This document shows, one piece after another, positions 1 through 14,700 of a stretch of 58,037 nucleotides of DNA (positions are counted from its first letter, which is position 1; each line of letters begins with the position of its first letter). Origin of the DNA: a virus; IMG/VR virus record IMGVR_UViG_3300045988_081319; one strand, given 5' to 3'. The notes beneath the pieces are model-generated. The model was not told where the DNA came from and did no database searches. It saw nothing but the letters and a program-made list of their open reading frames with translations. A program made the translations under genes and the position numbers.

Positions 1-22
1 TTTGTTCTTTCCTACAATTATA
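1..22. repeat. Terminal overlap, copy 1 (identical to 58016-58037)
   Basis: tttgttctttcctacaattata is read at both window ends. Confidence 0.85.
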
Positions 23-50
23 TTATACTGCATTATCTTATAATAGTCAA
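22..50 (-). promoter_or_regulatory. sigma70-type promoter firing leftwards across the circular junction into the 57986->52692 operon
   Basis: Minus strand TTGACT (50..45), 17-nt spacer, TATAAT (27..22). It is part of a 64-bp repeat shared with 40934-40997. Confidence 0.6.
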
Positions 51-551: not shown

Positions 552-860
552 TTATTTCAGGCCAATCTGAGTAAAGATGAATGTAAGCACGGCGGTGATG
601 ATCGCCGTAATTACCACGGTTGTGGCGCTGTCCCACTTCTTCGAGGGCTTGGTCTTCAGCTCTTCCACGTCGTCCGCCAGAGAATCGACCTTTGTCTCGG
701 TGTTTTTTTGCGCCATTGTCAGACGTTCCAGCGAGAGGGCGAGCTTGTGAACGCTTTCAGTGAGCTTCTCCTGCTCATCCAGTCGCCTGCTGATGTTGCT
801 GATCTGTTCTTCCATGTGCGCCTGCTTTTCAAGCATGGCATCGTGCGTATTCTCGGCCAT
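552..860 (-). CDS. xhlA: XhlA-like lysis-associated membrane protein
   Basis: 102 aa with an N-terminal coiled coil and a single C-terminal TM (TTVVITAIITAVLTFIFTQIGL). This architecture and position are typical of the XhlA family. Confidence 0.7.
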   Translation of the reverse strand: MAENTHDAMLEKQAHMEEQISNISRRLDEQEKLTESVHKLALSLERLTMAQKNTETKVDSLADDVEELKTKPSKKWDSATTVVITAIITAVLTFIFTQIGLK

Positions 861-919
861 CGTTCAAATCCTCCACATTTCGCCCGCAGAAACGGGCGGA
901 ATGCCCGTCCGGGCTATTT

Positions 920-2503
920 TTAGCCCACGGTTACGGAATCGACTTCGGCGAGCGTACCACCATACTGCTCAAAGAGCTTGCGGAGCGTGGCCTCGTCGCC
1001 GCTGACGATCAGAACGAAGGAACGAACGGGGTCATTGCCCGTGTCATCCGGGACATTGCCATCCGGCTCCTTCGGTGCATTCAGCGCATCGGTCAGCGCC
1101 TTATAGGTCGCTTCGTCGAGCACACCGGTCTGGTTCAGACCTTTGGCGGCTTGGAAAGCGGCGACGGCTTTCTGCGTTTCAGAACCGAAATCGCCATCTG
1201 CGCCGTACTTCGGCAGAGTTTGGTCCAACGCCAGCAGCGCGTTCTGCAATTCCTTCACATCGTCGCCCTTAGCACCCTTGGAGAGAGGAAGGCGGTCGCC
1301 GATCTTCTTCTTGGTGGATTCAGGCTGGGAGACGGTTCCATCTGCGGCATAGGTCAGCATAGACGCAGGGAGCTTGCCCCAATGCGTCCAAGGGCCTTCG
1401 CTTACCTTGCGCTTTACGCAATCGTAGGCGAAGCCGCGCATCTCCACGGTGTAGCCATTGCCAACGTATACGCCGATGTGGCCGGATTTCCAGACGACAA
1501 TGCCGGGAATATCCGGAATGGAGGAAATCGGCCCGGATTCCTTGCACAGCGCAAACATACTGTTCGCGCCCTTGTCCGGGCAGCCATTGGCGCCGTACTT
1601 CGGGGTGGCGTTGAGGTCGCCATTTTTCCAGAAGAACGCCTTAATCAGTCCGACGCAATCTGCACAGGTGCAGCCGTTTGCGATGTCCTTCATGTAGCCG
1701 TTCTTACGGCTGGCGGTATAATGCGCAGGGTACTGCTTCGCCTTGCTCTCGTACTTGCTCTGCGTGCACTTGTTGCCGTAGGTTCCGTACCAGTAGACCC
1801 ACTTTGCCTCGAACACCTTCAGGGCGAACTCCGCGAGCCGTATATTGGTAAACATTTTCTTTACACTTCCCTCTGTTTCGTCCGGGGCTGGAATGGTTTC
1901 GACACCAGTAAAGAAATCAAGCGGCTTGCCGCCTGAAAGCAAGCTCAGGTCAACGTTGCCGTTCACGCCAGCGAGTCTTCCGCAACTGGTGTACTGCCAA
2001 AGCTCATGCGGGCAGCTCGGCTTATACTTGTCAGCCGGAATGTTCCCATCGTTCAGACCCCAGTGCGGAATCCACACGATGTCGCACATGCCAATGGCGG
2101 CGCCAGCCCACTTATAGCGAGTGTTGATGTACAGCCCGATCTTTTTGCAGCCGAGCTTGCGCAGCTCGTCGAGGAACGCGACACAAACTGCTTCCGTGGT
2201 CATCTGTGTCTGAGCTTCATACTCGATGTCGGCAATGAAAAAAGACGGCTGCTTTGCCGCCTTTTCCGTGCAGAACACGAAGTAGCTCGCTTCTCTCCGG
2301 GCTTCCTCTGCCGTCCCAGCTTTGACGTAATGGTACGCACCGAATGGGATACCATGCTGAACGCAGCCTTCCACGTTGCGCAGGTACTTGACGTCCATGC
2401 TGATGCCGCAAGAGGCTCGAAGAATTACAAATTCAAGCTCCGCTGCGGCTTTCGCCCAAACAACATTGCCCTGCCATTTGCTGATGTCAGCAATCTTTTT
2501 CAT
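920..2503 (-). CDS. Multidomain endolysin: GH25 muramidase + NlpC/P60-like peptidase + PG_binding_1
   Basis: GH25-like N-terminus (DISKWQG..FVILRAS..GAYHY), Cys/His peptidase core (CADCVGLIK..GHIGVYVG) and a PG-binding repeat (GDDVKELQ..GADGDFGSETQKAV). Start trimmed to MKKIADI behind GGAAAGGAGAG. Confidence 0.85.
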   Translation of the reverse strand: MKKIADISKWQGNVVWAKAAAELEFVILRASCGISMDVKYLRNVEGCVQHGIPFGAYHYVKAGTAEEARREASYFVFCTEKAAKQPSFFIADIEYEAQTQMTTEAVCVAFLDELRKLGCKKIGLYINTRYKWAGAAIGMCDIVWIPHWGLNDGNIPADKYKPSCPHELWQYTSCGRLAGVNGNVDLSLLSGGKPLDFFTGVETIPAPDETEGSVKKMFTNIRLAEFALKVFEAKWVYWYGTYGNKCTQSKYESKAKQYPAHYTASRKNGYMKDIANGCTCADCVGLIKAFFWKNGDLNATPKYGANGCPDKGANSMFALCKESGPISSIPDIPGIVVWKSGHIGVYVGNGYTVEMRGFAYDCVKRKVSEGPWTHWGKLPASMLTYAADGTVSQPESTKKKIGDRLPLSKGAKGDDVKELQNALLALDQTLPKYGADGDFGSETQKAVAAFQAAKGLNQTGVLDEATYKALTDALNAPKEPDGNVPDDTGNDPVRSFVLIVSGDEATLRKLFEQYGGTLAEVDSVTVG

Positions 2504-2639
2504 GTTCTCGTTTCTTCTCTCCTTTCCGCGAGCGTATAGCCTTGAAGATGCCTTCCGGGTGATGCGTCCAAGCGATTGCGGCAACAGAGATGATGCTGAA
2601 AACGACGAAGAGGAACACAGCGATGCAAAGCTCCTTCAT
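2487..2639 (-). CDS. Small single-TM protein (50 aa), translationally coupled
   Basis: The ATG overlaps the upstream stop (GTATGA). Sequence MKELCIAVFLFVVFSIISVAAIAW is hydrophobic. It overlaps the endolysin start and is below the ORF-track size cutoff. Confidence 0.4.
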   Translation of the reverse strand: MKELCIAVFLFVVFSIISVAAIAWTHHPEGIFKAIRSRKGEKKREHEKDC

Positions 2640-2896
2640 ACGTCAATCACCTCCGCACTGTCGCACCATGCCTCATACCGGCAGCGAATATCGTCTTCAA
2701 GTCCTTGATATGGTACTACGCCCCGAACCACGCGCAAATCTATGTCATACTCATCAACACCGACGTCCGTATGATAGGTCTGCGCCGAAGGTATGAGGTA
2801 CACGTCTACCGTGCCATCTCCGCATGGTTCAATGGCATAAAATTTTCTCGCGGGGTGATCTCTCGGAGAGTTACCGCGATTCTGCGATGCTCTCAT
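2636..2896 (-). CDS. Hypothetical protein
   Basis: ORF with GAAGGGAG 8 nt before MRASQ. Sits between the RT remnant and the lysis genes. Confidence 0.6.
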   Translation of the reverse strand: MRASQNRGNSPRDHPARKFYAIEPCGDGTVDVYLIPSAQTYHTDVGVDEYDIDLRVVRGVVPYQGLEDDIRCRYEAWCDSAEVIDV

Positions 2897-3397
2897 AGGC
2901 TTGCTCCCTTCTTGTGCTGTCGCGTTGCAGGACAATGTTCTCTTCTATCCAGCGGCGCAGATTATAGCCGTTCTTATGCTGTGACATTCCGATATAACTC
3001 CGGATTGTGTCGAGCGCGGAATCCAGATCAATCGCGCCGATGGCGTACATCTCTTCGATGTGTTTCATAGCCCGCTTCGCGTGCCGTACCGTCCGTTTCC
3101 TCGACGGATGCCGTGCGGCGTGATGATACATCCGACAAATTCCACCGGCTGATCTATGCGGCACACGCACGTTTTGTTGTTGAGGCTCAATTTCAGCGCT
3201 GTCCAGAGAAAGTCTTCAATCGCGTCTTTGACAGCTTCGACATCTTCAGCCTTGATAATCAGGTCTACGTCATCCACATAGCGAATATAGTATTTTATTC
3301 CCAGCCTGTGCTTGCAGTATTTGTCCAAGCAGTCAAGATAAGCGTTCGCCGTCTCCTGCGACGTAAGGTTACCAATCGGCAGACCCACATCGTACAA
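2871..3397 (-). pseudogene. DGR reverse transcriptase remnant (N-terminally truncated and frameshifted)
   Basis: GLPIGNLTSQ (DGR-type motif 4) and YIRYVDD (YxDD box) lie in ORF 3065-3397. The C-terminal region (RSYIGMSQHKNGYNLRRW) is in another frame, with the shift near 3099-3106. Motifs 1-3 are absent. Confidence 0.8.
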
Positions 3398-3445
3398 CCG
3401 CTCGGAGCGTGGGCATTCATCGGCGCTTCTGCCGGGAGGCAGCCC

Positions 3446-3478
3446 ATTTCAATCCACGCTCCCCGCACGGGGAGCGAC
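3446..3478 (-). CRISPR. Solitary type I-C-like CRISPR repeat (no array, no cas genes)
   Basis: Minus strand GTCGCTCCCCGTGCGGGGAGCGTGGATTGAAAT. It has the GTCGC start, a 7-bp GC stem (GCTCCCC/GGGGAGC) and the GTGGATTGAAAT tail characteristic of I-C repeats. Confidence 0.75.
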
Positions 3479-3504
3479 AATTGCCGCCGCGCCGGGGAAA
3501 CCGC
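3479..3504 (-). repeat. Remnant of DGR template repeat (first 26 nt only)
   Basis: GCGGTTTCCCCGGCGCGGCGGCAATT is identical to 4211-4236 in the target gene. Similarity stops abruptly at the CRISPR repeat. Confidence 0.7.
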
Positions 3505-3570
3505 AGAAAGCAGAAAGCAGAAACAGAGGCGCGTATTTTGGCGTATTCCCAAGACTAAGGCAGAAAGCGC

Positions 3571-4050
3571 TCAGTCGCACTCTCTGCCGTCGTTCTTATA
3601 CGGTACGGCTTCGACCTTTTGAATCCATGCGTCAAGCATCTTGCCCGTTTCGATCAGCAGACCAGACCACACGCCGTAGGTATGGTCATCGACGAGCCGC
3701 TTCATATCGGTGATCTGAGCGCCGTTTTCATCTTTCGCGGGCTTTCCGCTCACGCGCCGCGTCACCTTGTACTTGGCGCAGTTGCTTCTACGCAGCAGAC
3801 GGAAAAGCGCGGCGAGCCGTGCATCAGCTTCGTGCAAGCTGGTTTTGATGCGGTACTTCCGCTGTGCCATTTCCAGCAGCACTGCAATCTCGTCTATCAG
3901 TTCCGGCATCCGCGTTCCCCGCGTAAAACGGTACTGGCGCGGCCACTGGTTGATCTGGTTCTCGCCATATTCGCAGGCGTCACCAAACTTCTGCTGCACG
4001 GTTGCTTTCATTGCCATTGCCTGACGGCTTTCGGTTTTCTTTTCGCTCAT
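3571..4050 (-). CDS. avd: DGR accessory variability determinant (Avd-like)
   Basis: 159 aa, basic and helical, with an Avd-like C-terminal motif ETGKMLDAWIQK. Canonical position between VR and TR. Confidence 0.7.
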   Translation of the reverse strand: MSEKKTESRQAMAMKATVQQKFGDACEYGENQINQWPRQYRFTRGTRMPELIDEIAVLLEMAQRKYRIKTSLHEADARLAALFRLLRRSNCAKYKVTRRVSGKPAKDENGAQITDMKRLVDDHTYGVWSGLLIETGKMLDAWIQKVEAVPYKNDGRECD

Positions 4051-4076
4051 ATCATCATCCTCTCAACGGGAGACGA

Positions 4077-4098
4077 GGGCGACGCTCCTGCGCCGCCC
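4077..4098 (-). promoter_or_regulatory. GC-rich hairpin immediately downstream of VR
   Basis: Minus strand GGGCGGCGC-AGGA-GCGTCGCCC (9 bp including one G.U, tetraloop), 9 nt after the target stop. It resembles the VR-flanking hairpin of the BPP-1 DGR. Confidence 0.5.
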
Positions 4099-4106
4099 TT
4101 CAGTTT

Positions 4107-4236
4107 TCAGGTTTCAAGGAAGCCGCCGCGCACGCCAAGGGCCACGCCCGCGTACGAGCGCGGGCTGAGCGAGGACACATAGCCCAGCCCAGCGTTCGAC
4201 GTGTTGCTGTAATTGCCGCCGCGCCGGGGAAACCGC
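4107..4236 (-). repeat. DGR variable repeat (VR) at the 3' end of the target gene
   Basis: Begins with the 26-mer shared with the TR remnant. Encodes GGNYSNTSNAGLGYVSS..GVRGGF with Asn/Ser/Tyr-rich positions. The extent towards the stop codon is inferred. Confidence 0.65.
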
Positions 4237-5318
4237 TCGCCCTGAGCAAACTGCATGTAGCAGTAGCCCTGCGTCGTATCGCCAGGCGTCGGGAACAGAC
4301 CGAGTTCATACAGGAGCGCGGGCACATACGGGATGTTCGCGGAATTGACTGCGAGGTCTTTGAAGGACGTTCCGCGATACTCACTGTCGAACGTCGGCGC
4401 CACGGTATCCAGCGTGATTTTGCTGTTTGCCCACGTCCAGTGCAGCGTACCGGACGTGCCGGGAGCCACGAGGGTATGGCCGTTGTTCGCAGAGTTCGGC
4501 AGGATTGCCTTCCAAGCGGCGCTGCTGGCAGACAAGTCAGCGGAGGGGTCGGCGGCGTTGTTGTTTTCAAGCACCTGCAATTCGCCATCATAGATTCTGT
4601 AACCGTAATCCTGATCGAAGCAGTTGCCATTCACATCGTCAATGCCGCTGATCGTTCCATCAAGCCGCCAAGATGCGGGGCCGGAACCCGTCAGCGTATT
4701 GTAGCCGCGATAGCTATTGTCCGCACTGTACTGAGAGGCAACAGGCGTACCGCCGACATGCTTGCCCTTCTTCCAGTAGCCAACATCCTCCGAAGGAAGA
4801 TGCTCCGCGCTGGTCGTATGAGCTACGAGGGCGGTATACTCCCAGCTGCGAAAAACACGCTTGTCGCCAACGGCGACGCTCTTATTCAGTTCGAAAGAGG
4901 TGCCATCGCGGTAATCAACGCCATAAGCGTTGTTACCCTTCGGAACCCAGCCGTTCTTCTTGGCGAGCAGCAGAATCAGGCCGCTGTCTGCACAGGTTTT
5001 CGGGCCGAAGCCAGTACCGCAGGCTTTAATCTTTGCAAGCAACTGATCGGCGCCCGTGTTGACCAGCGGCGGCATGTTGGGGATGGAATGGCAGGCTTCG
5101 TTATGGCTGCTGCCTTTGAAGACGGCAATCAGGCGGCGGTCGATTTCCTGACCGTTGACGATGAACGCCGGGTGCGTATGCTCCGGAAGGCTCGCGTCGA
5201 GGTCAGAGCTTTTGCACTTGTAGATGGGATAAAAGAAATTGGGCGTACCATCGTCAGCATACTTGACGACCCAGCCCATTTCCTGAGCGAAGCGCTCAAT
5301 GGAATCGTGCAGTCCCAT
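4107..5318 (-). CDS. DGR target: receptor-binding tail fibre protein with C-type-lectin-like variable C-terminus (Mtd-like)
   Basis: 403 aa. C-terminus RRGGNYSNTSNAGLGYVSSLSPRSYAGVALGVRGGF resembles the CLec/FGE-type DGR variable fold. Follows the tail-fibre genes. Confidence 0.8.
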   Translation of the reverse strand: MGLHDSIERFAQEMGWVVKYADDGTPNFFYPIYKCKSSDLDASLPEHTHPAFIVNGQEIDRRLIAVFKGSSHNEACHSIPNMPPLVNTGADQLLAKIKACGTGFGPKTCADSGLILLLAKKNGWVPKGNNAYGVDYRDGTSFELNKSVAVGDKRVFRSWEYTALVAHTTSAEHLPSEDVGYWKKGKHVGGTPVASQYSADNSYRGYNTLTGSGPASWRLDGTISGIDDVNGNCFDQDYGYRIYDGELQVLENNNAADPSADLSASSAAWKAILPNSANNGHTLVAPGTSGTLHWTWANSKITLDTVAPTFDSEYRGTSFKDLAVNSANIPYVPALLYELGLFPTPGDTTQGYCYMQFAQGERFPRRGGNYSNTSNAGLGYVSSLSPRSYAGVALGVRGGFLET

Positions 5319-5467
5319 TATTCAGCGCCTCCCATCAATTCCACGAGTTCCTGATACTCTTCCGCAGTGATGCGGTCGGCCATCAGAAACACGTCGAGCT
5401 TCTGCAAGGTCTTTTCACGGTCATAGCCGCCCTTGGTGATGATGCGCTTCATCAGCTTGTAAGTCAT
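5318..5467 (-). CDS. XkdX-like small phage protein
   Basis: MTYKLMKRII...ITAEEYQELV. GGAGG lies 9 nt upstream. Paralog of 5544-5702. Confidence 0.55.
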   Translation of the reverse strand: MTYKLMKRIITKGGYDREKTLQKLDVFLMADRITAEEYQELVELMGGAE

Positions 5468-5543
5468 GTTCATTTCCTCCAATCTTGCAAGGTCGCGTTT
5501 GAACTGCCTCTCGGCAAAGAAAAAGGCGATGCTGTCGATGATC

Positions 5544-5702
5544 TTATTCATCGGGCATCATCGCCACGAGTTCCTGATACTCCGTCGCCGTCAGCCGGTC
5601 GGCGGCAAGAAAAGCGTCCAGCTTATCCATCGTCGCAGCCCGGTTCAGCGTGCCGTTTTTGACGTCCCGCGCAATGATACGCTTCATGAGCTTATACGCC
5701 AT
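5544..5702 (-). CDS. XkdX-like small phage protein (paralog)
   Basis: MAYKLMKRII...LTATEYQELV behind a GGAGAGGAGG RBS. Confidence 0.55.
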   Translation of the reverse strand: MAYKLMKRIIARDVKNGTLNRAATMDKLDAFLAADRLTATEYQELVAMMPDE

Positions 5703-5967
5703 CGTTCGATTCCTCCTCTCCGCCGATTGCACTGATCGTCATCTCATACAGCATTTCAGCCATGAGATCGTCGTGCTCTGCAATGGTTTCCGTGTTAGCC
5801 TTTTGCCGAGCAGCAAAAGCCTTGTAGGGTGCAAGCTCCGCTTCCGAGCGAGCTTCGCGTTCCGCTTCCCACTCCGCGATCTGCTCAGGCGTCGGCGGGG
5901 CCGGAAACGGCTCGCTTGTTGCCTGCGCGTCTTGCGACGTGCCAAGCGCTTCTTTGTTGTCCGTCAT
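5692..5967 (-). CDS. Hypothetical acidic protein (XkdW position)
   Basis: ORF trimmed to MTDNKE behind AAAGGAGAAGG. Lies between the fibre and XkdX-like genes. Confidence 0.6.
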   Translation of the reverse strand: MTDNKEALGTSQDAQATSEPFPAPPTPEQIAEWEAEREARSEAELAPYKAFAARQKANTETIAEHDDLMAEMLYEMTISAIGGEEESNDGV

Positions 5968-6001
5968 TTGAAGCCTTCTCCTTTCTTGCCATGGTGAGCG
6001 G

Positions 6002-6634
6002 TTAGGACGAAAGTGCATCGAGCTTCGCCTCGACAGCGGTCAATCGCTGTTCATTCGCACGGTGCGCAGCATAGTTCACAGACTGCATTGCGTCCATGAA
6101 GACAAGCATTGCCGCGATGTCAAGATTGGACGGGACTTCAAGATTGGTGCGGGCCGCCGCCTTCGTCGTCGCTCCCGTGCCGCCCTTCATAACGGGAACG
6201 GCTGCTGACAGTTGCGCAGGGTTGAGCGCCGTCACGTTGATGGTGATGTTGCCGCTACCGTCAAACGTCACGCCCTCCGCAGTAGCTCCGCCAGAGATGG
6301 CGATGGTTCTCGGATTCGCCAATTTGTCGGCTTTCCCTGCGCTGTCGGCTTTGCCGTGCAAATCCAGCTTCGCGGCGTCAAGGCTGTCCAGCGTGTGGTC
6401 GCTGTAACCGAGTTTCAGCATGACGAGAGTGTACAGCAGATCAAGCATCGAATGTGCGGCCAAGATGCCCTGCTCGGCGTTGTTGAAATTGGTGGCCGAC
6501 ATAGGCGTACCTTGCTGAATGACGTCTCCGGGGGACGGGACAAGTGTCAGCGTGCCGTCAGCATTCTTCTTGACTTCAAAGGTCTTGGGGCGCTGCACAA
6601 CGTGGTCTTTCCAGTCAGTCGGTGTATAAGCCAT
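6002..6634 (-). CDS. Tail fibre protein
   Basis: N-terminus MAYTPTDWKD and the fibre motif PVMKGGTGATTKAAARTNL, with a C-terminal coiled coil. Confidence 0.75.
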   Translation of the reverse strand: MAYTPTDWKDHVVQRPKTFEVKKNADGTLTLVPSPGDVIQQGTPMSATNFNNAEQGILAAHSMLDLLYTLVMLKLGYSDHTLDSLDAAKLDLHGKADSAGKADKLANPRTIAISGGATAEGVTFDGSGNITINVTALNPAQLSAAVPVMKGGTGATTKAAARTNLEVPSNLDIAAMLVFMDAMQSVNYAAHRANEQRLTAVEAKLDALSS

Positions 6635-6655
6635 GTTCTTTCCCTCCTTTCAGCC

Positions 6656-6961
6656 TCAAGATTCGGTAATCGTGAAGGCGAAGCGGTAGAGAATGCCCTC
6701 CTGCACAGCTTTGCGGGAAATACTCTCTGCCTTGCTCGCCCAGAGGCTTCCGTTGTGGTCGTAGAGCTGGACCTCCGTGACGATAATATCGCCCGGCAAA
6801 GTATGGTCAATGATGAAGGTGATGCCCACACGGCCATCAGACATGATCCTCGCATCCCTGATTTCTGCCTTGTGGTATGCTCCATTGACCTTGTACTGCG
6901 CGTAGTGAATGTTGTCCTTGATGCAATTCTTCAGAGCGGTCAGCGCCGTATTCGTCAGCAT
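6656..6961 (-). CDS. Hypothetical baseplate/fibre-associated protein
   Basis: ORF trimmed to MLTNTAL behind AAGGAAGGAG. Position between the XkdU-like gene and the fibre. Confidence 0.55.
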   Translation of the reverse strand: MLTNTALTALKNCIKDNIHYAQYKVNGAYHKAEIRDARIMSDGRVGITFIIDHTLPGDIIVTEVQLYDHNGSLWASKAESISRKAVQEGILYRFAFTITES

Positions 6962-6986
6962 CAGTTCCGTCACTCCTTCCTTGTCG

Positions 6987-7679
6987 TTACAGAATGTCCC
7001 CGCCAAGCGTATACACGCCGCACAGGGGATAGCCAATCGTATAGGCTCCGGAATCCATCATCGCCTTGATGTCGGGGGCCTTGGCAATGCCGCCCGAATA
7101 ATTCTCCTGCGGAAGTGTGCCGCACAGAAGATAGTCGAAAACCCAGTATTCGGTTACGACCGACACCTGTATTTCAGCGGCACTCTGGCAGAGAATTTCA
7201 TAGGACATGTGGCTCTGCTTGTGCGCGTTGATGTATCGCTTCAGCGCGGTAAGGTCAAGCGGCTCGCTTCCGTCTGCATCAGTAATATTGACACCGAAGG
7301 TGTGCGGCCCGATTCGGTCGATTACCTCAACATCTCGACCGGTCATGATCTTGATGTAGCGTTCGAGCGCATAGGGCGTGAACGGGTGCGGCAGCGCTCG
7401 CATTTCGAGCACCTTCTGGCGGCGCTGTTCGAGCGTGTGCGTAGGCGCAGGAATGAGGCCATATCGACGTTCCCATAGTTCGATGGCCCACGTCACGCTT
7501 TCAGGGAAAAGCTGCGACGGCAGCGACTTTATGATGTCCCACAGTTTGTCGTACTCACGCCCCATGATTTCGTACATCCAGCAGCCGACGTAGGATTCCT
7601 CGTAGATCGGGGAAACCGTGTCGATCATTCGGTTGCCGGATTCGCTCTTGAGGATGATGTCTCTTTGTGTGGCATCCAT
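6987..7679 (-). CDS. Baseplate protein, XkdU/DUF2313-like (P2 gpI-like)
   Basis: 230 aa following baseplate J, with a WAIELWERRYGL-type motif typical of DUF2313. Confidence 0.65.
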   Translation of the reverse strand: MDATQRDIILKSESGNRMIDTVSPIYEESYVGCWMYEIMGREYDKLWDIIKSLPSQLFPESVTWAIELWERRYGLIPAPTHTLEQRRQKVLEMRALPHPFTPYALERYIKIMTGRDVEVIDRIGPHTFGVNITDADGSEPLDLTALKRYINAHKQSHMSYEILCQSAAEIQVSVVTEYWVFDYLLCGTLPQENYSGGIAKAPDIKAMMDSGAYTIGYPLCGVYTLGGDIL

Positions 7680-7681
7680 GC

Positions 7682-8827
7682 TTACACCGCCTTCGTGAAC
7701 TCGACGCTCTTCAAGGCCGGGTAATCATCCACATCAATGGCAACGTTATTCCTTGTGCCGTTGATGTACAGCTCCTTGTAGTCAGCCACGCCAGCCGTTC
7801 CCGACAGGACGCTGCCGACACGGGTGTAGCGCACGCAGCCTTCCTGCTTCGCCTCGTCAAAATACGCAGACAGTCCAACCTTGAAAGCAGCAGTTACGCT
7901 GTCGATGTCCGCATCATCTTCAAGCGTGATCTGGGCTGTGATGGTAAGGTCAACGGAATCAGCCGTGACAACGGTCAAAATCGCCCCAATCGGGGCAAGA
8001 CGTTTGTCGCGGTTCTCCGGCGACATGATGTGATTGTAGACATCTTTCAGCGTTTTTTCATTGGCCGGGTCGCCGTTCGCGTCCATGATAATCAGCTTGA
8101 CAGTTCCGGTTCCTGCGCCTTCCCATTCCGGGACGACGGCAACAGAGCCTACGCCGTCAATCTCCTTGGCCCAGCGCTTATAGTCCGCATCATTGCCGAC
8201 GAACGAGGATTCATTGCTTTTATCATGCTCCATGATGCGCTGACGAAGATCCTCATCCGTTTCATCGTCGGTTCCGCCGGTAATGGCATCCTCATTCGTA
8301 ATATCGGCGATACCGCCGATTGGAGACGCCATGAGCGTTACGCTGTTGGCCGGTACATTTCCAACAGGGCCGTTCTCGGTGCATTGGATGTCGATGTAGA
8401 CAGTTCGTTCTTCGCTGTCTCCGGGGATAACAGCATCTTCCAGTGTAGCATATTCCACGTTGGAAGTTACGGCTGTTGCGGGAGTGCTGAACACAAAGCC
8501 TTTGGGGATGAGCGTTCCTTCAACGCCCGTTACCTTCAATTTACCAGAGGCGGCAGTGGCGGATTTACGGCTCAGACCGGCGGCGCGAGCGTGCATATCG
8601 AGGTATTCGCCATATGTCCATTCCGGAAAGAAAATCTGAATGATTTCATTCAGGACAATCATGGCATCGGCCTTTTCGATTGCCGCAGGGAACGTGAAGT
8701 CCGACGCAAAGCCACCTTCTGTCTTGTCGATGTCTCCGGGAAGATTTTCAAGCATTCTTGCCCGTATCGTTTCCTCATCCATATCGTCAAGGATTTCAGG
8801 CGGCGTATAGCTGGTTACGTTTTCCAT
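7682..8827 (-). CDS. Baseplate J-like protein (XkdT-like)
   Basis: 381 aa. Size, position and N-terminal region (EETIRARMLENLPGDIDKTEGGF) are typical of the baseplate J family. Confidence 0.75.
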   Translation of the reverse strand: MENVTSYTPPEILDDMDEETIRARMLENLPGDIDKTEGGFASDFTFPAAIEKADAMIVLNEIIQIFFPEWTYGEYLDMHARAAGLSRKSATAASGKLKVTGVEGTLIPKGFVFSTPATAVTSNVEYATLEDAVIPGDSEERTVYIDIQCTENGPVGNVPANSVTLMASPIGGIADITNEDAITGGTDDETDEDLRQRIMEHDKSNESSFVGNDADYKRWAKEIDGVGSVAVVPEWEGAGTGTVKLIIMDANGDPANEKTLKDVYNHIMSPENRDKRLAPIGAILTVVTADSVDLTITAQITLEDDADIDSVTAAFKVGLSAYFDEAKQEGCVRYTRVGSVLSGTAGVADYKELYINGTRNNVAIDVDDYPALKSVEFTKAV

Positions 8828-8846
8828 ACAGTATCTTCACCTCCCA

Positions 8847-9296
8847 TTACGTCACGACCGTCATTCCAACATCAAAAGCCTCCCAGCTCTTCGGCTTGAT
8901 GATGAAAGAGGTGGTCAGTTCGTTGCCTTTCCACAAATACTCAAAGTTGTACACCCTATCCACATGCGGGTTGCTCAAAAGAGCTTCGGAGATCGTGCGT
9001 TCAAGCGCAGACTGCACTGCATCGCGCGTCGGCTCCATCAGACAGGCTTCCACGTCGATTCCGCAGCCGTAGTAGCTCTGGCAAGCCCCGGCTTGCGTCT
9101 GAAGCGTTTTCAGCACCCACAGCATGAAAGCGTCTCTGCCGTTTACCATGACGACGCGGTTCGCACCGTCTCTGACAAAATCTCCGGTATCAAAATCAAA
9201 AAGAGGGGCTGGAAGAAAAACCTGTTCCTCCGTATCATCGGATGCCTGCATTGCAGGAATCTCGAATACCGGGTATAATTTCTGGCTTTCTGCCAT
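8847..9296 (-). CDS. Baseplate protein, XkdS/DUF2634-like
   Basis: 149 aa after trimming to MAESQKLYPVFE behind GGAGGTG. Synteny with the Xkd baseplate module. Confidence 0.6.
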   Translation of the reverse strand: MAESQKLYPVFEIPAMQASDDTEEQVFLPAPLFDFDTGDFVRDGANRVVMVNGRDAFMLWVLKTLQTQAGACQSYYGCGIDVEACLMEPTRDAVQSALERTISEALLSNPHVDRVYNFEYLWKGNELTTSFIIKPKSWEAFDVGMTVVT

Positions 9297-9310
9297 TTTC
9301 ACACCTCCTA

Positions 9311-9679
9311 TCAGATGACGCTGCTTGCCGAGAGAATCACGTCCACGACCACAGCATCGTTCTGAACCCATGCAACCAGCACTCGGTCGCCAACTTTGAG
9401 CGCTTCGCGTGTGGAGACGTCCACGGTATGACTATGGCTTCCGTGGTCGCCAACGCTCCTTGACGAGGTTGTAGCCTTGACGGTACGGCTTTTCAAGTGC
9501 CGACACACAAGGTAGTCAGAACGTGGTATCGGCAGCGGATATGTGTTTGTAAGCAGAGACTTATCGCCCTGAATGACGCCAAAATCAAGCAAGAGCTCCT
9601 TTGGAATCTGCTTATCCGCAATACCCCGAAGCACGCTTGCCAGTCTGCTTACACCCGGACTGTTGTCGCCTTTGCTCAT
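9311..9679 (-). CDS. Baseplate spike-region protein, XkdR/DUF2577-like
   Basis: 122 aa. Synteny between the XkdQ-like and XkdS-like genes. Confidence 0.55.
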   Translation of the reverse strand: MSKGDNSPGVSRLASVLRGIADKQIPKELLLDFGVIQGDKSLLTNTYPLPIPRSDYLVCRHLKSRTVKATTSSRSVGDHGSHSHTVDVSTREALKVGDRVLVAWVQNDAVVVDVILSASSVI

Positions 9680-10674
9680 GCCGGTTCCACCTCCATCTGC
9701 ATCGTCATGGTTGTCGCATTGTGCGTGATGCCGAGAACGTAGAAAAAACCGCTCAGACCATCCGTCTTCGCGTGTATTCTGTCGCCTTTCCGAATCAACG
9801 GGAAGTCGGGAGACTGAAACGTAATCGTGCGTTCAGGTTTACCCTTCTCGTCAATCAACTCCTGCGCTTCCTTCTTGGCATCGGCAAGCGAACTGCTGCC
9901 AGCCGCCTTGACAGACTGCAAGATGCCGTACTCCACGTCGCCGTCCACCGTCGCTTCAACCTTCGGGCGGCCTTCGCTGTCGTCCTTGCCGGTAATCACT
10001 ACGCGGGTGACAAGGTTCGTCATGGAGAACTTGTCCTTGCTTGCCGTCAAATTCGTATCGGCTGTGAATGCGTAGATGTCAGGGTTTCCGCCCTGCTTTA
10101 CAACATCCGCCTTTCCTTTGTTTGCGCGAATAATCGACTTCGCGCCGCCGAGCTTCTTTGCATCGTCCAGCGTCTCGGTCAGCATGGCAGAAATGGTCTT
10201 GCTCTTATAGAGAATTTTCTGATGGGTGACGTTTGCGCCGGAGTATTCGCCGACCGGCACATTCCACGAAGTCAGAATATCGGACATGATGCTCTGCGTG
10301 GTCTTGCCTTTGGCGTAATACTTGCTGTCCGTAGACTTTTGCAAATAGAAAAGCAGGTCGTAGCACGTCAGGACAATGGAATCACCCGCTATGCGCGAAT
10401 GTTCCCATTCCCAAACCGTGCCGCGAAAAATCTCCTGCTGCCCAGCTCCCCAGTCTGCAAACAGATAAACAATCGTGCAGAGGGCGAGCGCCTGAGATAG
10501 GCGCCCACCCTCAAACGGGATGTCTCGAATCGCAAGGTTCAGCCGGACGGCAAGCTCTTTCTCGTTTTCTTCCCAAGCAATATTCTCGGCTACATTTTCG
10601 AGATGAACCTGCCGCCCATCTGAAAGAACGGCAATCAGGTAGTAGCTGATCTTTGACAAATCAACGGATACCAT
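9676..10674 (-). CDS. Baseplate hub / late-control-D-like protein (XkdQ-like)
   Basis: 332 aa directly downstream of the XkdP-like gene and the tape measure. Confidence 0.65.
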   Translation of the reverse strand: MVSVDLSKISYYLIAVLSDGRQVHLENVAENIAWEENEKELAVRLNLAIRDIPFEGGRLSQALALCTIVYLFADWGAGQQEIFRGTVWEWEHSRIAGDSIVLTCYDLLFYLQKSTDSKYYAKGKTTQSIMSDILTSWNVPVGEYSGANVTHQKILYKSKTISAMLTETLDDAKKLGGAKSIIRANKGKADVVKQGGNPDIYAFTADTNLTASKDKFSMTNLVTRVVITGKDDSEGRPKVEATVDGDVEYGILQSVKAAGSSSLADAKKEAQELIDEKGKPERTITFQSPDFPLIRKGDRIHAKTDGLSGFFYVLGITHNATTMTMQMEVEPA

Positions 10675-10686
10675 AAACTGCCCTCC

Positions 10687-11706
10687 TTACTTCTTGAGCC
10701 TGTTGAACGTATTCTTCTTTGCAGGGGTAATCTTCTTCGTAGGGATATTTATCTTTGTGGTGGTCTTCTTCGTAGTAGACTTTGCAGCGCCCGCAAGAGC
10801 ACTCTTGATTGCATTGGTGACTTTGCTCAATGCGCTGGACACGACCTTCGTCTTGGATTCAATGCTCTTCTTCACTGCATCCTTCGCCACATTGATTAGG
10901 CTCGTATTCGGCTTCGATAACGTCAGGGACTTCTTGCTGTTGGTGTTGTTCGAGGTCGTCGATTTCGCCGTAGACGAGTTGGAATTCTTCTTGCTGGAAC
11001 TATTGCTCGACGAGCCGCTGCTGGAAGACGAGGAAGATGTCGTCAGCTTGATATAGCTCGCGCTAATCCAGCCTACGCCGCCTTCGCCCTTCGGGTATAC
11101 GATCTTATACCAGTTGCCGCTTTTGTCGAGTATTTCGACCTGCGTGCCCTTGCTGAGGGTTCCGTAGCTCTTATAGCTGGTTCCCGGCCCTTTGCGCACG
11201 TTCACCTTGCCGCCCGTAACAGTTCCGTATTTCTTGTTTCCGCTACTCTCGCCCGAAGATGAAGCGGAAGAAGGCGGAACAACAGGCGCTGGCGTTGTGG
11301 TCACGAACAGCTCAAGCCGCTTTGTCAGGTTGATGGTATAGGAGACGTTTCCGACGCCGTAATACTCGTAGACGAAGCTCTCTATGAACGTATCCACGTT
11401 GATGGACAAATCCGTTACCATCAGTGTGATGGTATCGCCGTTTTCCTGCCACTCTTCAAGCAGTTTGATGATTTTCGCCGGTTCCTGCCAGTCATAGACA
11501 TACGAAGCGGAAGCCAGTTGGTCTGACGGGAATACACCATTCCAAGAATACCCCGCGAGTGTTGACCCACGGGGTATCTTGACTTCGCCTTTTTTGATGA
11601 TGGACAAGGAGACGACGCTCGCACCAGTCTTCACATTCAGGCGGTCTGGCAACAGAGGGATGCGCAGACGCGCTCCCGTCCTTTTGGAAGTGAGGTAGAA
11701 TTCCAT
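10687..11706 (-). CDS. XkdP-position tail protein with SH3b domain and Ser/Lys/Thr-rich tail
   Basis: SH3b-like segment GTVTGGKVNVRKGPGTSYKSYG..GWISASYI. aa 221-339 are low-complexity (poly-Ser, then K/T-rich). Confidence 0.7.
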   Translation of the reverse strand: MEFYLTSKRTGARLRIPLLPDRLNVKTGASVVSLSIIKKGEVKIPRGSTLAGYSWNGVFPSDQLASASYVYDWQEPAKIIKLLEEWQENGDTITLMVTDLSINVDTFIESFVYEYYGVGNVSYTINLTKRLELFVTTTPAPVVPPSSASSSGESSGNKKYGTVTGGKVNVRKGPGTSYKSYGTLSKGTQVEILDKSGNWYKIVYPKGEGGVGWISASYIKLTTSSSSSSSGSSSNSSSKKNSNSSTAKSTTSNNTNSKKSLTLSKPNTSLINVAKDAVKKSIESKTKVVSSALSKVTNAIKSALAGAAKSTTKKTTTKINIPTKKITPAKKNTFNRLKK

Positions 11707-11720
11707 GCGTTACGCCTCCC

Positions 11721-14700
11721 TTAAACCATATTGGCAACGATGTCTTCGAGCTGCTCGGCAATCGCGTTTCCGAAGATTTCCGCAAGCTCCTTCTGCTTTC
11801 CCTTGAGCTTGTCAAGAATATCGTCGGTGCTTTCGCCGCCTTCAATCTGGAAAACAGGATTTGCTGCGACGCTGACCGAGAACGAATTGCTTCCGCCGCC
11901 ACCGGTAGTCTGAATCGGTTTAGGCTTGCTGTCGCCGTCCCCGTCATCCCACACAACGTCGGGCAGGTTTTCGATAGCGCTGGAATAGGGGGAAAGAATC
12001 CCTCCGTCCGCAAACTCGGCAACACCCAACATTTCACCGGCTTGCAGCCACAGATCAATACCTCTGTCACGGCGCTTCGCGCCGAGCGGAATAATTGCTT
12101 CCGGGCCGTCTTCAGCCACCCACGAAAGCATGGCCCCATCATAGATGCCACCGTTGGCATTTTTCATCAGGGAACCAAACGACCGGGTGTAGGAATTATT
12201 GTAGGTATTGTTGTAGGTGTTGTTCGTGAGCGTCGTGGTCGCCGACGTGCCATCCAGCGCCTTCAGTGAAGTGCGGAGACTGTCAACCTGTGTCTTGCAC
12301 CCACTCGCATCGCCGCCAAGAGCAACGAACGCTTCCTGTGCATCCACGAGAGAGAAGGACGAAAGATCAATTCCATTGAGAGTTTCCAGCGCAGTGTTGA
12401 GTTCATCCAGACTGCTGATTTTATCGGCGCCCAAGGCTTCCAGCGCTGCGTTGACGCTTTCCAGCGCCGCAACGCCTTCTTCAGAGGCGGCGAAAGCCGC
12501 CTGCTCTTCGGCTGTCATGGCCGTGTACTGCGTTGTTACAGCCTGTACCTGCTGCTGCACCTGCTGCATGACCTCAGCTTTTGCAGCAATCTCAACGACC
12601 TCGACAGGCTGCGTCTTGTCGCTTTCGGCGAGGTAGTCCGTCTGTGCATTCAACTGCTGAAGCGCCATCACAGCGTCTTGGAATAATTGCTGTCCGACAG
12701 AATCAAGTTCGGAATAGCTCGCGGCGATTTCCTCAAGGCTCATACCCGCCTGAGCGGTTCCCTCGAAGGTTTTGCCAGTCAGAAGGGAAACTTCGCCGCC
12801 GTAGATGCCCTTTAGCTGATCGTTGTACTTGATATAATCGGCATTGTTCGATTCCGTGGTATTCGAGGCTCTCGTTTCTGCATCCTGAATGGTGCCGAGA
12901 AGCGAACCGAAATAGGAACCGTCCAGCAACCAGTCGAACGCAGGTATGCCCTGAGAAACAAGAGGAAGCCCGTAGTTATCAATCGCATACGGAGCAACTT
13001 CATTCGTATACCTTTCCTGAATGCCTTGGATTCCGGGCATGAACGTCTCTTCGTACCAAGTATCGTACTGATCGGACGTGATTTCTCCCGATCTACGCCT
13101 TGCGTACTGAAGATCGTCCTGAGCAACCAAATTCGCTCGGTCAGCTTCGAGCTGCATCAAATTGCCTCGCGCCGTGGACAGGCTGTCCTGCACGGCTTTA
13201 TCCACTTCGTACTGCTGCTGGTATTCGCCACGCCTTTCAACAAGCTCAGGAATAAGCTGACGGCTCTGGACGAGGCTGGTTTCAAGCTCAATCAGCTTCG
13301 TGTTGGCCTCAGTCGCCAGCGTATCGGACACTTGCTGCTGACGTTCCTCGGTGACACGCCCAGCGTTCACGTCGTCCTGCGTGATCTGCCCGCCGCTGAG
13401 GTCAATAAGATTACCGTACAGCTCTTCAAGCTGCGCATTGTAGGCTTGAAGGTCTTCTGTCTTCAAGCTGCCGCCAGCAAACGAGAAGTTGAGCACGGCA
13501 GTCTTGTCGCCAATAGTCATCATGGCATCAGACAGTTTCTTGAGCTCGTCTATACTCAGGCCAGCTTCGTTCAACTCGGCGTTGATCTCAGCACGGCGAT
13601 CTTCCAGCCGGTCATATTCGCCTGCGATTTCCTTGATCTGCGCCTCCGTCAGGCTCTGACCAGACAGCATAAGCGTGATAGCCGCTTCCTTCGTCTTCAA
13701 GGATTCGTATTCTTTGGACAAGCTCGCAATTTCCGCTTCGGTAAGCCCGCCCTCAGCTATTTTCGCCTCAATTTCTACACTTCTGGATTTGACGCCTTCG
13801 AGTGCTTCCTTGTACTGCTTCACTTCAGCTTCAGACAAGGAAGAACCAGCGAGCGTCAACTCAATTTCTGCTTCGCGAGTGTAGATGCCGGACAGCTCTG
13901 TTGTGTAGCTTTCAATCTGGTCTTTCGTCAGGCTCGTTTCGGAGAGAATGACGCTGACTTCGGCTTTTTTGCCATCAATCGAACCCATGAGGCTCGAAGC
14001 AAGAGCAATACCAGCAGTCGTAAGCCCAAGCCCTTCGAGTTTTACGGAGAGCTTTTCTTCACGGCTCTTGATGATTTCAAGTTCACTCTCATAAGCCGCC
14101 GCTTCTTCCGCAGTCAACGTGCCGGAAGCAAGAGCTACCTTAATTTCTTCCTCGCAGCTCTGCAAAACAGCAAGCTGACCTGCATAGGTCTGGATAGCTT
14201 CCGGAGTTACGCTGGACGCAGCAAGTTCGGCCTGAATCTCGACCTTTCGGCTTTTCAGCTTATCAAGTTCGGCCTGATATGCCGCTATGTCGGAAGGTGT
14301 AAGCGTTCCAGCGGCAAGGGCTGCTTCAAGTTCAACTTCGCGCCCATTGAGCTTATCCAGCTCAGATTGATAGGTGGTCACTTCTTCGGCAGTCAGCGTG
14401 CCAGAGGCAAGCTGCGCTTCGATGTAAGCCTTGCGGTCTTTGATTTCCTTTAGTTCCGTATTGTATGCGGCAATATCACTTTCCGTAAGCGAAGTATCAG
14501 ACAGGCGAGCGGTCAGCCAAACTTCCCGGTTTTCAATTCCGGCCAGTTCTGCTTTCAACTGAGTGATTCTATCCTGATTCTCCGAATCGTAATTGGCGAT
14601 CTTGAGTTTGACTTCCTTGATGTCCTGAATCGTGCCAACCGCATCATTCACACGCTTTGCGCTGGTTTCATAGGCGGTCGCCGCGTCCTGTACTTTGTCT

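Follow-up and report, generated by a model that had tools for sequence, protein, structure and literature searches.

A solitary type I-C CRISPR repeat in the remains of a phage retroelement

The virus record IMGVR_UViG_3300045988_081319 of IMG/VR, a stretch of 58,037 nt that was analyzed as a whole and is called the window here, represents a Mu-like temperate myovirus and carries a single repeat of a type I-C CRISPR system inside the remains of a diversity-generating retroelement (DGR). The repeat and the DGR genes around it were assigned from the open reading frames (ORFs), homologous proteins and the sequence of the repeat itself.

2871..3445, minus strand: remnant of the DGR reverse transcriptase (RT), the C-terminal ~53% from motif 4 (GLPIGNLTSQ) onward, assigned from ORFs and homologues
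3446..3478, minus strand: solitary type I-C CRISPR repeat, GTCGCTCCCCGTGCGGGGAGCGTGGATTGAAAT, 33 nt, read from the sequence
3571..4050, minus strand: avd, encoding the DGR accessory protein of 159 amino acids (aa), intact in the window
4107..5318, minus strand: gene of the DGR target protein, 403 aa; its variable repeat (VR) lies at 4236..4118

Type I-C repeats are about 32–33 nt long, start with GTCGC at the 5′ end, contain an internal GC-rich stem-loop and end with GTGGATTGAAA(T/C) at the 3′ end. The repeat of the window agrees with this consensus in its length, its stem-loop (a 7-bp stem, GCTCCCC/GGGGAGC, with the loop GTGC) and its 3′ end, GTGGATTGAAAT. A preliminary description made from the sequence alone had noted a lone I-C repeat on the minus strand at 3478..3446, and neither a second repeat nor a cas gene in the 58 kb. 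In line with this, the exact 33-mer is present in one copy only, also when up to three mismatches are allowed, and was absent from 100 shuffled sequences. PADLOC and Pfam searches revealed no Cas proteins among the 123 ORFs of the window on both strands. The only Cas-named hit, 'Cas1_IIIb', accompanies many hits to RT families, each to a single ORF, and most likely represents the RT stub. A CRISPR array, with at least two repeats and spacers, is thus lacking in the window, and is found at the same site in a related contig, L031, which is described below.

Rfam matches to the repeat are weak (CRISPR-DR9, 17.0 bits, and DR21, 17.5 bits, with gathering scores of 45 and 48), and Rfam holds no close model for it. 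In bacterial genomes, the exact 33-mer serves as the repeat of arrays with 33–37-nt spacers in four species, namely a Lachnospiraceae metagenome-assembled genome (MAG), an Oscillospiraceae MAG, Faecalibacterium sp. CAG:74 and a Ruthenibacterium MAG. Genes for Cas8c/Csd1, Cas7/Csd2, Cas4, Cas1c and Cas2, all scoring above NCBIfam cut-offs, lie directly upstream of the exact-repeat array in Faecalibacterium sp. CAG:74 (L019), so that the assignment of the 33-mer to type I-C in candidate hosts is borne out by an array beside I-C cas genes.

The repeat replaces 923 nt of an intact DGR

The exact extent of the exchange can be read from L025, a 41-kb human-gut contig found by a degenerate search with the sequence that follows the repeat. 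Its DGR is complete, with a 403-aa target protein, a 159-aa Avd, a template repeat (TR) of 119 nt that differs from its own VR at TR adenines, and an RT of ~389 aa. Window positions 12000..3481 align to L025 with 96.7% identity and positions 3445..960 with 99.0% identity. Between these blocks, L025 has 923 nt (9943..10865) in the place taken by the 33-nt repeat of the window. The lost DNA comprises 93 nt of the TR, the 278-nt spacer between TR and RT, and 184 RT codons. This confirms to the base that the repeat precisely replaces the rest of the TR and the N-terminal part of the RT; the earlier estimate that about 0.6 kb had been swapped was too low. The repeat itself has no counterpart in L025, as expected for a 33-mer foreign to the native TR/RT sequence.

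What was inserted is one whole repeat, nothing more or less, which is the content between two adjacent spacers of an array. Both flanks read as a protospacer-adjacent motif (PAM) followed by a protospacer, in the orientation of the repeat. TTC is the PAM of type I-C systems. The flanking elements are as follows.

3513..3515, minus strand: TTC, the PAM of protospacer 1, immediately 5′ of it and kept in the phage
3479..3512, minus strand: protospacer 1, 34 nt of native phage sequence whose 3′ end abuts the repeat, collinear with L025 to the last base
3411..3445, minus strand: protospacer 2, ~35 nt (inferred length) of native RT coding sequence, starting with GGGCTG (Gly-Leu)
3404..3412, minus strand: 9-nt stretch CCACGCTCC, RT codons Cys-Pro-Arg-Ser, complementary to GGAGCGTGG inside the repeat

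The spacers that would have matched the two protospacers, S1 and S2, have the putative sequences TGCTTTCTGCGGTTTCCCCGGCGCGGCGGCAATT and GGGCTGCCTCCCGGCAGAAGCGCCGATGAATGCCC.

On the left side, the last 26 nt of protospacer 1 (3504..3479) are a stub of the TR and are identical to the start of the VR (4236..4211) over all 26 nt, as had been described; only these two copies exist. An origin of S1 from the VR was rejected, because the VR copy is not preceded by a TTC at the required spacing. The TTC 34 nt ahead of the repeat is kept in all genomes that carry the junction, although the TGCTTTC heptad that closely precedes the TR (window 3505..3525) varies in copy number, with one copy in L021, two in the window and three in L012–L014 and L025. 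The presence of a TTC at 3515..3513, 34 nt before the repeat, therefore stands as reported, but its weight is small, because the heptads provide a TTC every 7–9 nt (offsets 18, 27, 34 and 41).

On the right side, the PAM of protospacer 2 itself has been deleted, with the repeat in its place. At this boundary L025 reads ...gtcccgTTC|GGGCTGCCTCCC... (also given as ccgTTC|GGGCTGCC), so that the three bases lost directly 5′ of the right flank are TTC. They form a conserved Phe codon, and the relative L016, with 61% identity in the RT, has TTC for this codon as well; the TTC that had been looked for at the second protospacer is thus found in both relatives. The frame downstream of the repeat is GLPPGRSADECPRSERLYDVGLPIGNLTSQ, and intact relatives read ...PF|GLP(P/R)GRSAD(E/D)CPR..., indicating that native RT sequence begins at the first base past the repeat and runs on in frame, as the preliminary description had it.

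A 9-nt complement of the repeat is indeed present at 3412..3404. L025 carries CCGCGCTCC where the window has CCACGCTCC, so that this stretch is native RT coding sequence, which belongs to the phage and was not brought in by the repeat. A designed structure was ruled out by the native RT codons together with an unremarkable fold, and the complementarity appears coincidental.

The junction is old and the DGR is dead

We observed the same junction in the interior of contigs from at least 12 independent assemblies, including L001, L004, L012–L014, L021–L024, L026 and the window. The sources of these contigs are JGI, ENA and Logan; samples and assemblers differ among them, and they include contigs of 553 kb and 521 kb. 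Around the junction, the genomes show ~20 differing sites per 800 nt, between one and three heptad copies, and lineage-specific single-nucleotide polymorphisms (SNPs) and indels. Their VR is the same throughout, except for one non-adenine SNP in L021 and L022, and differs from that of L025 at adenine sites, indicating that diversification ended in their common ancestor.

The DGR of this lineage is dead. Only 26 of the 119 TR bases are left in the window, the first 184 RT codons are gone, and the RT stub is divided by an additional 1-nt deletion, near 3102/3103, into the ORFs 3065..3397 and 2871..3170. Both avd and RT are intact in L025, whereas every aligned genome with the junction has a further frameshift in one or both genes. 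The extra 1-nt deletion affects only the RT stub in the window, L024 and L026, only avd (at a position equivalent to window ~3676) in L001, L004 and L021–L023, which lack the RT-stub frameshift, and both genes in L012–L014; the deletions in avd and in the RT stub are independent of each other. In the relative L016, the N-terminal region of the RT (600..1060) apparently contains frameshifts or stops as well: its gene call starts from motif 1, and RT-like sequence extends upstream of the called start in other frames.

A junction of this kind could also arise in silico, if an assembler followed a path from the phage protospacer into the repeat of a host array and back into the phage, omitting the 923 nt. 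Such paths probably explain L002, an unrelated phage contig (tape-measure region) that ends 6 nt past the same exact repeat (7..39), which abuts a TTC-flanked protospacer; the repeat-abutting sequence is preceded by TTC in four relatives of this phage (L027–L030). Given this position at the end of the contig, the assembler probably walked from a spacer of a host array into the phage in L002, but a second scar is another possibility. Another contig, L015, begins within the repeat. However, the junction described here is internal in contigs of all three sources and of different assemblers, up to the 553-kb and 521-kb ones, and the genomes that carry it share a frozen VR and bear frameshifts of their own that are foreign to the intact phage. 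The junction is therefore old and not an assembly chimera; an artefact at this site is hardly credible.

A second phage family and a recurrent PAM footprint

A degenerate I-C repeat pattern detected 67 loci in IMG/VR, which comprise true arrays, a large family of mini-arrays and ~15 independent solitary repeats. For an analysis of the upstream flanks we used 24 independent flank families (IMG/VR loci L032–L096) whose upstream flank was 60 nt or longer and free of any further repeat. In 12 of these 24 families, a TTC lies 33–37 nt upstream of the first repeat, be this solitary or the first one of an array, with a sharp mode at 35. Among all 64 trinucleotides TTC ranks first with this score of 12, all others reaching 5 at most; ~10% would be expected by chance (P ~8e-7). 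Several of the 12 loci lie at contig ends and are possible assembly walks, and at least seven are internal.

The clearest comparison is offered by the L063 family (L063, L082, L090, L092 and L093), in which TTC and 35 nt are followed by the repeat variant GTCGCACCCCTCGCGGGGTGCGTGGATTGAAAT and then by the other flank. The same two flanks lie 1021 nt apart in L118 (5689..6745), with no repeat between them. Among the repeat-less relatives (L097–L127), 29 of 31 carry TTC directly before the right flank; the remaining two, L118 and L126, have TCC and are possibly PAM escape variants. Judged by its sequence, the L063 family shows the same PAM-bounded swap in unrelated phages, and it shares with the window an insert bounded by the repeat and flanks that are PAM-adjacent protospacers in the same orientation. 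The contigs of many relatives of this family end ~60 nt upstream of the swap site, which may be near a genome terminus.

The mini-array family includes L034 (6497..6720) and ~25 further loci (L033, L037, L039, L041 etc.) from gut phages, in which a 35-nt spacer separates a degenerate repeat from a full one. Compared to the L033 type, the L037 type lacks 67 nt from the repeat to a TTC-flanked site, and the last base of the repeat is changed from T to C; this repeat SNP is imported. The 67-nt loss between these mini-array forms removes the start of a small gene on the other strand. An explanation of the 67-nt gap as a lost spacer-repeat unit (34 + 33) was rejected, since it consists of phage DNA with this opposite-strand gene start. 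Two other solitary repeats lie in unusual surroundings: the one in L087 (~4858..4890) sits between two copies of the 33-nt sequence tggcagaaagggggggggctggagcaaaaaaaa, with no TTC before the upstream copy, and the one in L077 (~3040..3072) lies 35 nt past a TTC in a sequence that resembles the T-arm of a transfer RNA, gggttcgattcc.

One relative carries an array at the site of the repeat

A search of a protein collection with the peptides of the two putative spacers, extended by four repeat-derived residues per side, retrieved P0241, an ORF that crosses a CRISPR array and terminates in the intergenic sequence between avd and TR of this phage. It lies on L031, a 105-kb contig of the same phage with the same boundaries of TR stub and RT stub.

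9826..10532 of L031, minus strand: CRISPR array of 11 perfect repeats and 10 spacers of 32–36 nt, at the site of window 3446..3478

Spacers 9 and 10 of this array match the phages L030 and L028, which are relatives of L002, with three mismatches each. The target of spacer 10 is preceded by TTC and that of spacer 9 by the non-canonical PAM TCT. L031 differs by only 6–14 SNPs from L001, L021, L022 and L023 and nests among genomes with one repeat, and the single-repeat form is present in every clade. The simplest history is thus that the lone repeat came first and that spacer-repeat units were gained later; in this history L031 would have acquired them through homology of its repeat to a host array.

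Probable origin of the repeat by recombination with a host array

Taken together, we consider it likely that the lone repeat is the scar of a double recombination between the phage and a host I-C array across two neighboring spacers. The ancestor would have been a temperate gut phage with a complete DGR (target gene, avd, 119-nt TR and ~389-aa RT). Its host would have carried a I-C array with two neighboring spacers that matched the phage on the same strand, with targets ~0.9 kb apart: S1 would match the 34 nt up to TR base 26, S2 ~35 nt from RT codon ~185 onward, each target preceded by TTC. Homologous exchange in both spacer/protospacer pairs, by double crossover or gene conversion, would then replace the 923 nt by one repeat, leave protospacer 2 without its PAM and kill the DGR. 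Because the DGR core is dispensable, the recombinant could survive, and a widespread prophage lineage would have descended from it, with a frozen VR and with avd and the RT stub in decay. The target of the newer spacer would lie on the PAM side of the older one, the geometry that results from primed adaptation in type I systems. The exchange may have been a repair outcome after damage by Cas3, or may have taken place in a host whose first spacer was ineffective.

A scar formed by way of two adjacent spacers was one of the two readings offered in the preliminary description, and it is now supported by the exact repeat, the 923-nt swap, the two TTCs, the reality of the junction and its recurrence in other phages; the adjacency of S1 and S2 in one array and the pathway of recombination are what we infer from these observations. 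The proposed connection between CRISPR targeting and the inactivation of a DGR is real, but the link looks incidental: a loss of ~0.9 kb is tolerated at this place.

Several points weigh against the scar. No donor array with S1 or S2 was found in the arrays of the four species, in IMG/VR or in the array-derived ORFs of the protein collection, searches of limited reach. In detail, the spacers of the exact-repeat arrays of the four species gave no match to the window (longest match ≤18 nt); an all-frame query with ORFs of repeat-S1-repeat-S2-repeat retrieved 8000 generic array ORFs, with S1 or S2 peptides in none of the 120 that were listed; the refined query with four-residue flanks yielded no host array with S1 or S2; and IMG/VR scans for repeat plus S1 and S2 plus repeat had no match. 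Moreover, L025 is ~3% diverged and not the ancestor itself, the left PAM on its own counts for little among the local heptads, and full escape is not explained, since the recombinant retains protospacer 1 with its PAM and would still be a target of S1. L031 also allows an insert that was originally longer and collapsed later.

According to this last explanation, the phage would first have caught a segment with several spacers, in which S1 and S2 were not adjacent, and a deletion between repeats would later have left one of them. In favor of it, the 11 perfect repeats and 10 spacers of L031 lie within identical boundaries; an array that lacks a leader can lose units but not add any, direct repeats commonly lose the units between them, and by inspection only, the phage flank has no obvious likeness to host leaders. 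However, at least five independent and complete collapses would be needed, no intermediate is seen, and the second family (L063) also carries exactly one repeat. We therefore regard a collapsed array as unlikely and favor the direct exchange between neighboring spacers.

Present role of the repeat

Most likely, the repeat is now a neutral relic, which continues to offer a 33-bp homology handle to host arrays, and we rank such a relic with a recombination handle above a selected decoy. As a decoy, it would act as an RNA anti-CRISPR (Racr) that is transcribed together with avd or the late operon, binds Cas5c and Cas7 and titrates components of the I-C Cascade complex. This role is compatible with the origin as a scar and differs on the present function only. 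In favor of it, expression of RacrIC1, a solitary I-C repeat, inhibits I-C interference (PMC10651486). The repeat of the window matches the repeats of host arrays exactly, is located on the coding strand with avd on one side and the lysis genes on the other, and has no substitution in 12 genomes. This lack of changes is, however, uninformative on selection: with ~20 variable sites per 800 nt, drift predicts ~0.8 and thus less than one change in 33 nt. A promoter within 250 bp was a criterion in the selection of Racr candidates (PMC10651486), and a simple consensus scan of 2800..4300 found no sigma-70-like promoter and hence no promoter-like site within 250 nt of the repeat, although the repeat may be transcribed by read-through from the avd operon. 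Furthermore, the stem of the repeat competes with the downstream 9-nt complement, its fold is ordinary (z = −0.47), no acr neighbor was identified, although no search against anti-CRISPR proteins was made, and the position in a dead DGR is fully accounted for by the scar. A selected Racr, which corresponds to the decoy of the preliminary description, is thus not supported and appears improbable to us.

Alternatively, the repeat could serve as the phage attachment site (attP) for integration into host arrays, as in Streptococcus phage PhiAP1.1, where an attP derived from a piece of a repeat and the pick-up of spacer-repeat units by aberrant excision are documented (10.1101/2020.10.09.333658). 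L031 shows that spacers are picked up at this site as well. However, the repeat is internal in prophage-bearing contigs of 553 kb, 521 kb and 105 kb, with phage genes on both sides, and lies between avd and the RT stub, by tail-fibre/baseplate and lysis genes and not at the end of a gene block, which makes such a use very unlikely.

The phage and its neighboring genes

The large terminase of the phage is closest to that of Faecalibacterium phage FP_Brigit (58.6% amino-acid identity), and the genome contains an integrase-family ORF. Besides avd and the RT stub, the repeat has small ORFs and an endolysin gene as neighbors. The avd orthologue has a weak match to the Pfam family bAvd, and mismatches between the VR of the window and the TR of L025 fall mainly at TR adenines. 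A megablast search of GenBank phages with the DGR region gave no match, and an Avd-based search for the locus in IMG/VR returned the same contig only. Among the ORFs of the window, PADLOC detected strong matches to the candidate defense families PDC-M41B (6.6e-45) and PDC-M30B (2.3e-43) and to type II methyltransferases, and Pfam a DAM-like phage methylase, DUF4942 and DUF5131.

Discussion

Solitary repeat units (SRUs), Racrs, phage mini-arrays and spacer-mediated recombination are already known. The literature we consulted, in which subscription journals were poorly covered, contains no double spacer crossover that leaves one repeat in a viable natural phage, no such footprint, no DGR inactivated in this way and no other link between CRISPR and DGRs. 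The event at the DGR suggests a concrete route by which lone repeats and small arrays may enter phages, and the second family, the enriched footprint of TTC, ~35 nt and repeat, and the array in L031 suggest that the process is general. We tentatively extend this to a joint reading, to which we give slightly less than an even chance: phage-array double crossovers could be a general source of solitary repeats, the raw material of Racrs and leaderless mini-arrays, and the lone repeat could then act as a docking site for copying host units, as in L031, so that host immunity would turn into phage-borne immunity against rivals.

The origin of solitary repeats and mini-arrays in phages is not explained in the literature consulted, and here an event is reconstructed to the base. 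Such events can be recognized in sequence data by this simple footprint, which also tells which CRISPR type, and hence which hosts, once attacked a phage. In addition, the origin of SRUs, Racrs and phage mini-arrays becomes directly testable in the laboratory, and a natural, datable inactivation of a DGR is documented, with a frozen VR and decaying accessory genes.

SRUs and Racrs have been found in phages and plasmids (Faure 2019; Camara-Wilpert 2023, PMC10651486). Like these, the window has a single phage repeat without cas genes that is identical or nearly so to the repeats of likely hosts, and type I-C is represented by the active RacrIC1. Unlike them, the repeat of the window has no promoter-like site within ~250 bp upstream and no known acr neighbor, and it lies inside a disabled DGR. 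Its origin has been rebuilt base by base, whereas the Racr paper gives no mechanism of origin (PMC10651486). In deletions by which phages escape CRISPR, a targeted dispensable region is likewise lost together with its PAM, but ordinary ones leave no repeat, while here array sequence was inserted and one target was kept with its PAM.

Recombination between array spacers and phage protospacers is established (Varble 2019 and Watson 2018, as related in PMC8616872 and 10.1101/2020.10.09.333658). Both in those studies and in our model, recombination makes use of the homology that an array spacer shares with its target in the phage. As far as these accounts go, a single crossover there yields transducing particles with CRISPR loci, whereas two crossovers here would have given a viable phage with one repeat in exchange for ~0.9 kb, fixed in nature. 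PhiAP1.1 (Varble 2020 preprint, 10.1101/2020.10.09.333658) resembles the present case in that a phage repeat mediates exchange with host arrays and spacer-repeat units are carried along; in contrast, the process in PhiAP1.1 is driven by an integrase and involves 8 bp of a type II-A repeat at the prophage ends, while the window carries a full 33-nt I-C repeat in the late region. Comparable to L031 are the mini-CRISPR arrays of viruses (Medvedeva 2019, PMC6858448), which are arrays or lone repeats without cas genes and with spacers against competing viruses, just as spacers 10 and 9 of L031 match another gut phage family. For leaderless phage mini-arrays, a gain of spacers by recombination with host arrays has been suggested (PMC6858448). 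The window differs from them in having no spacer at all, and that study does not describe a footprint of PAM plus protospacer at the edge of an array (PMC6858448).

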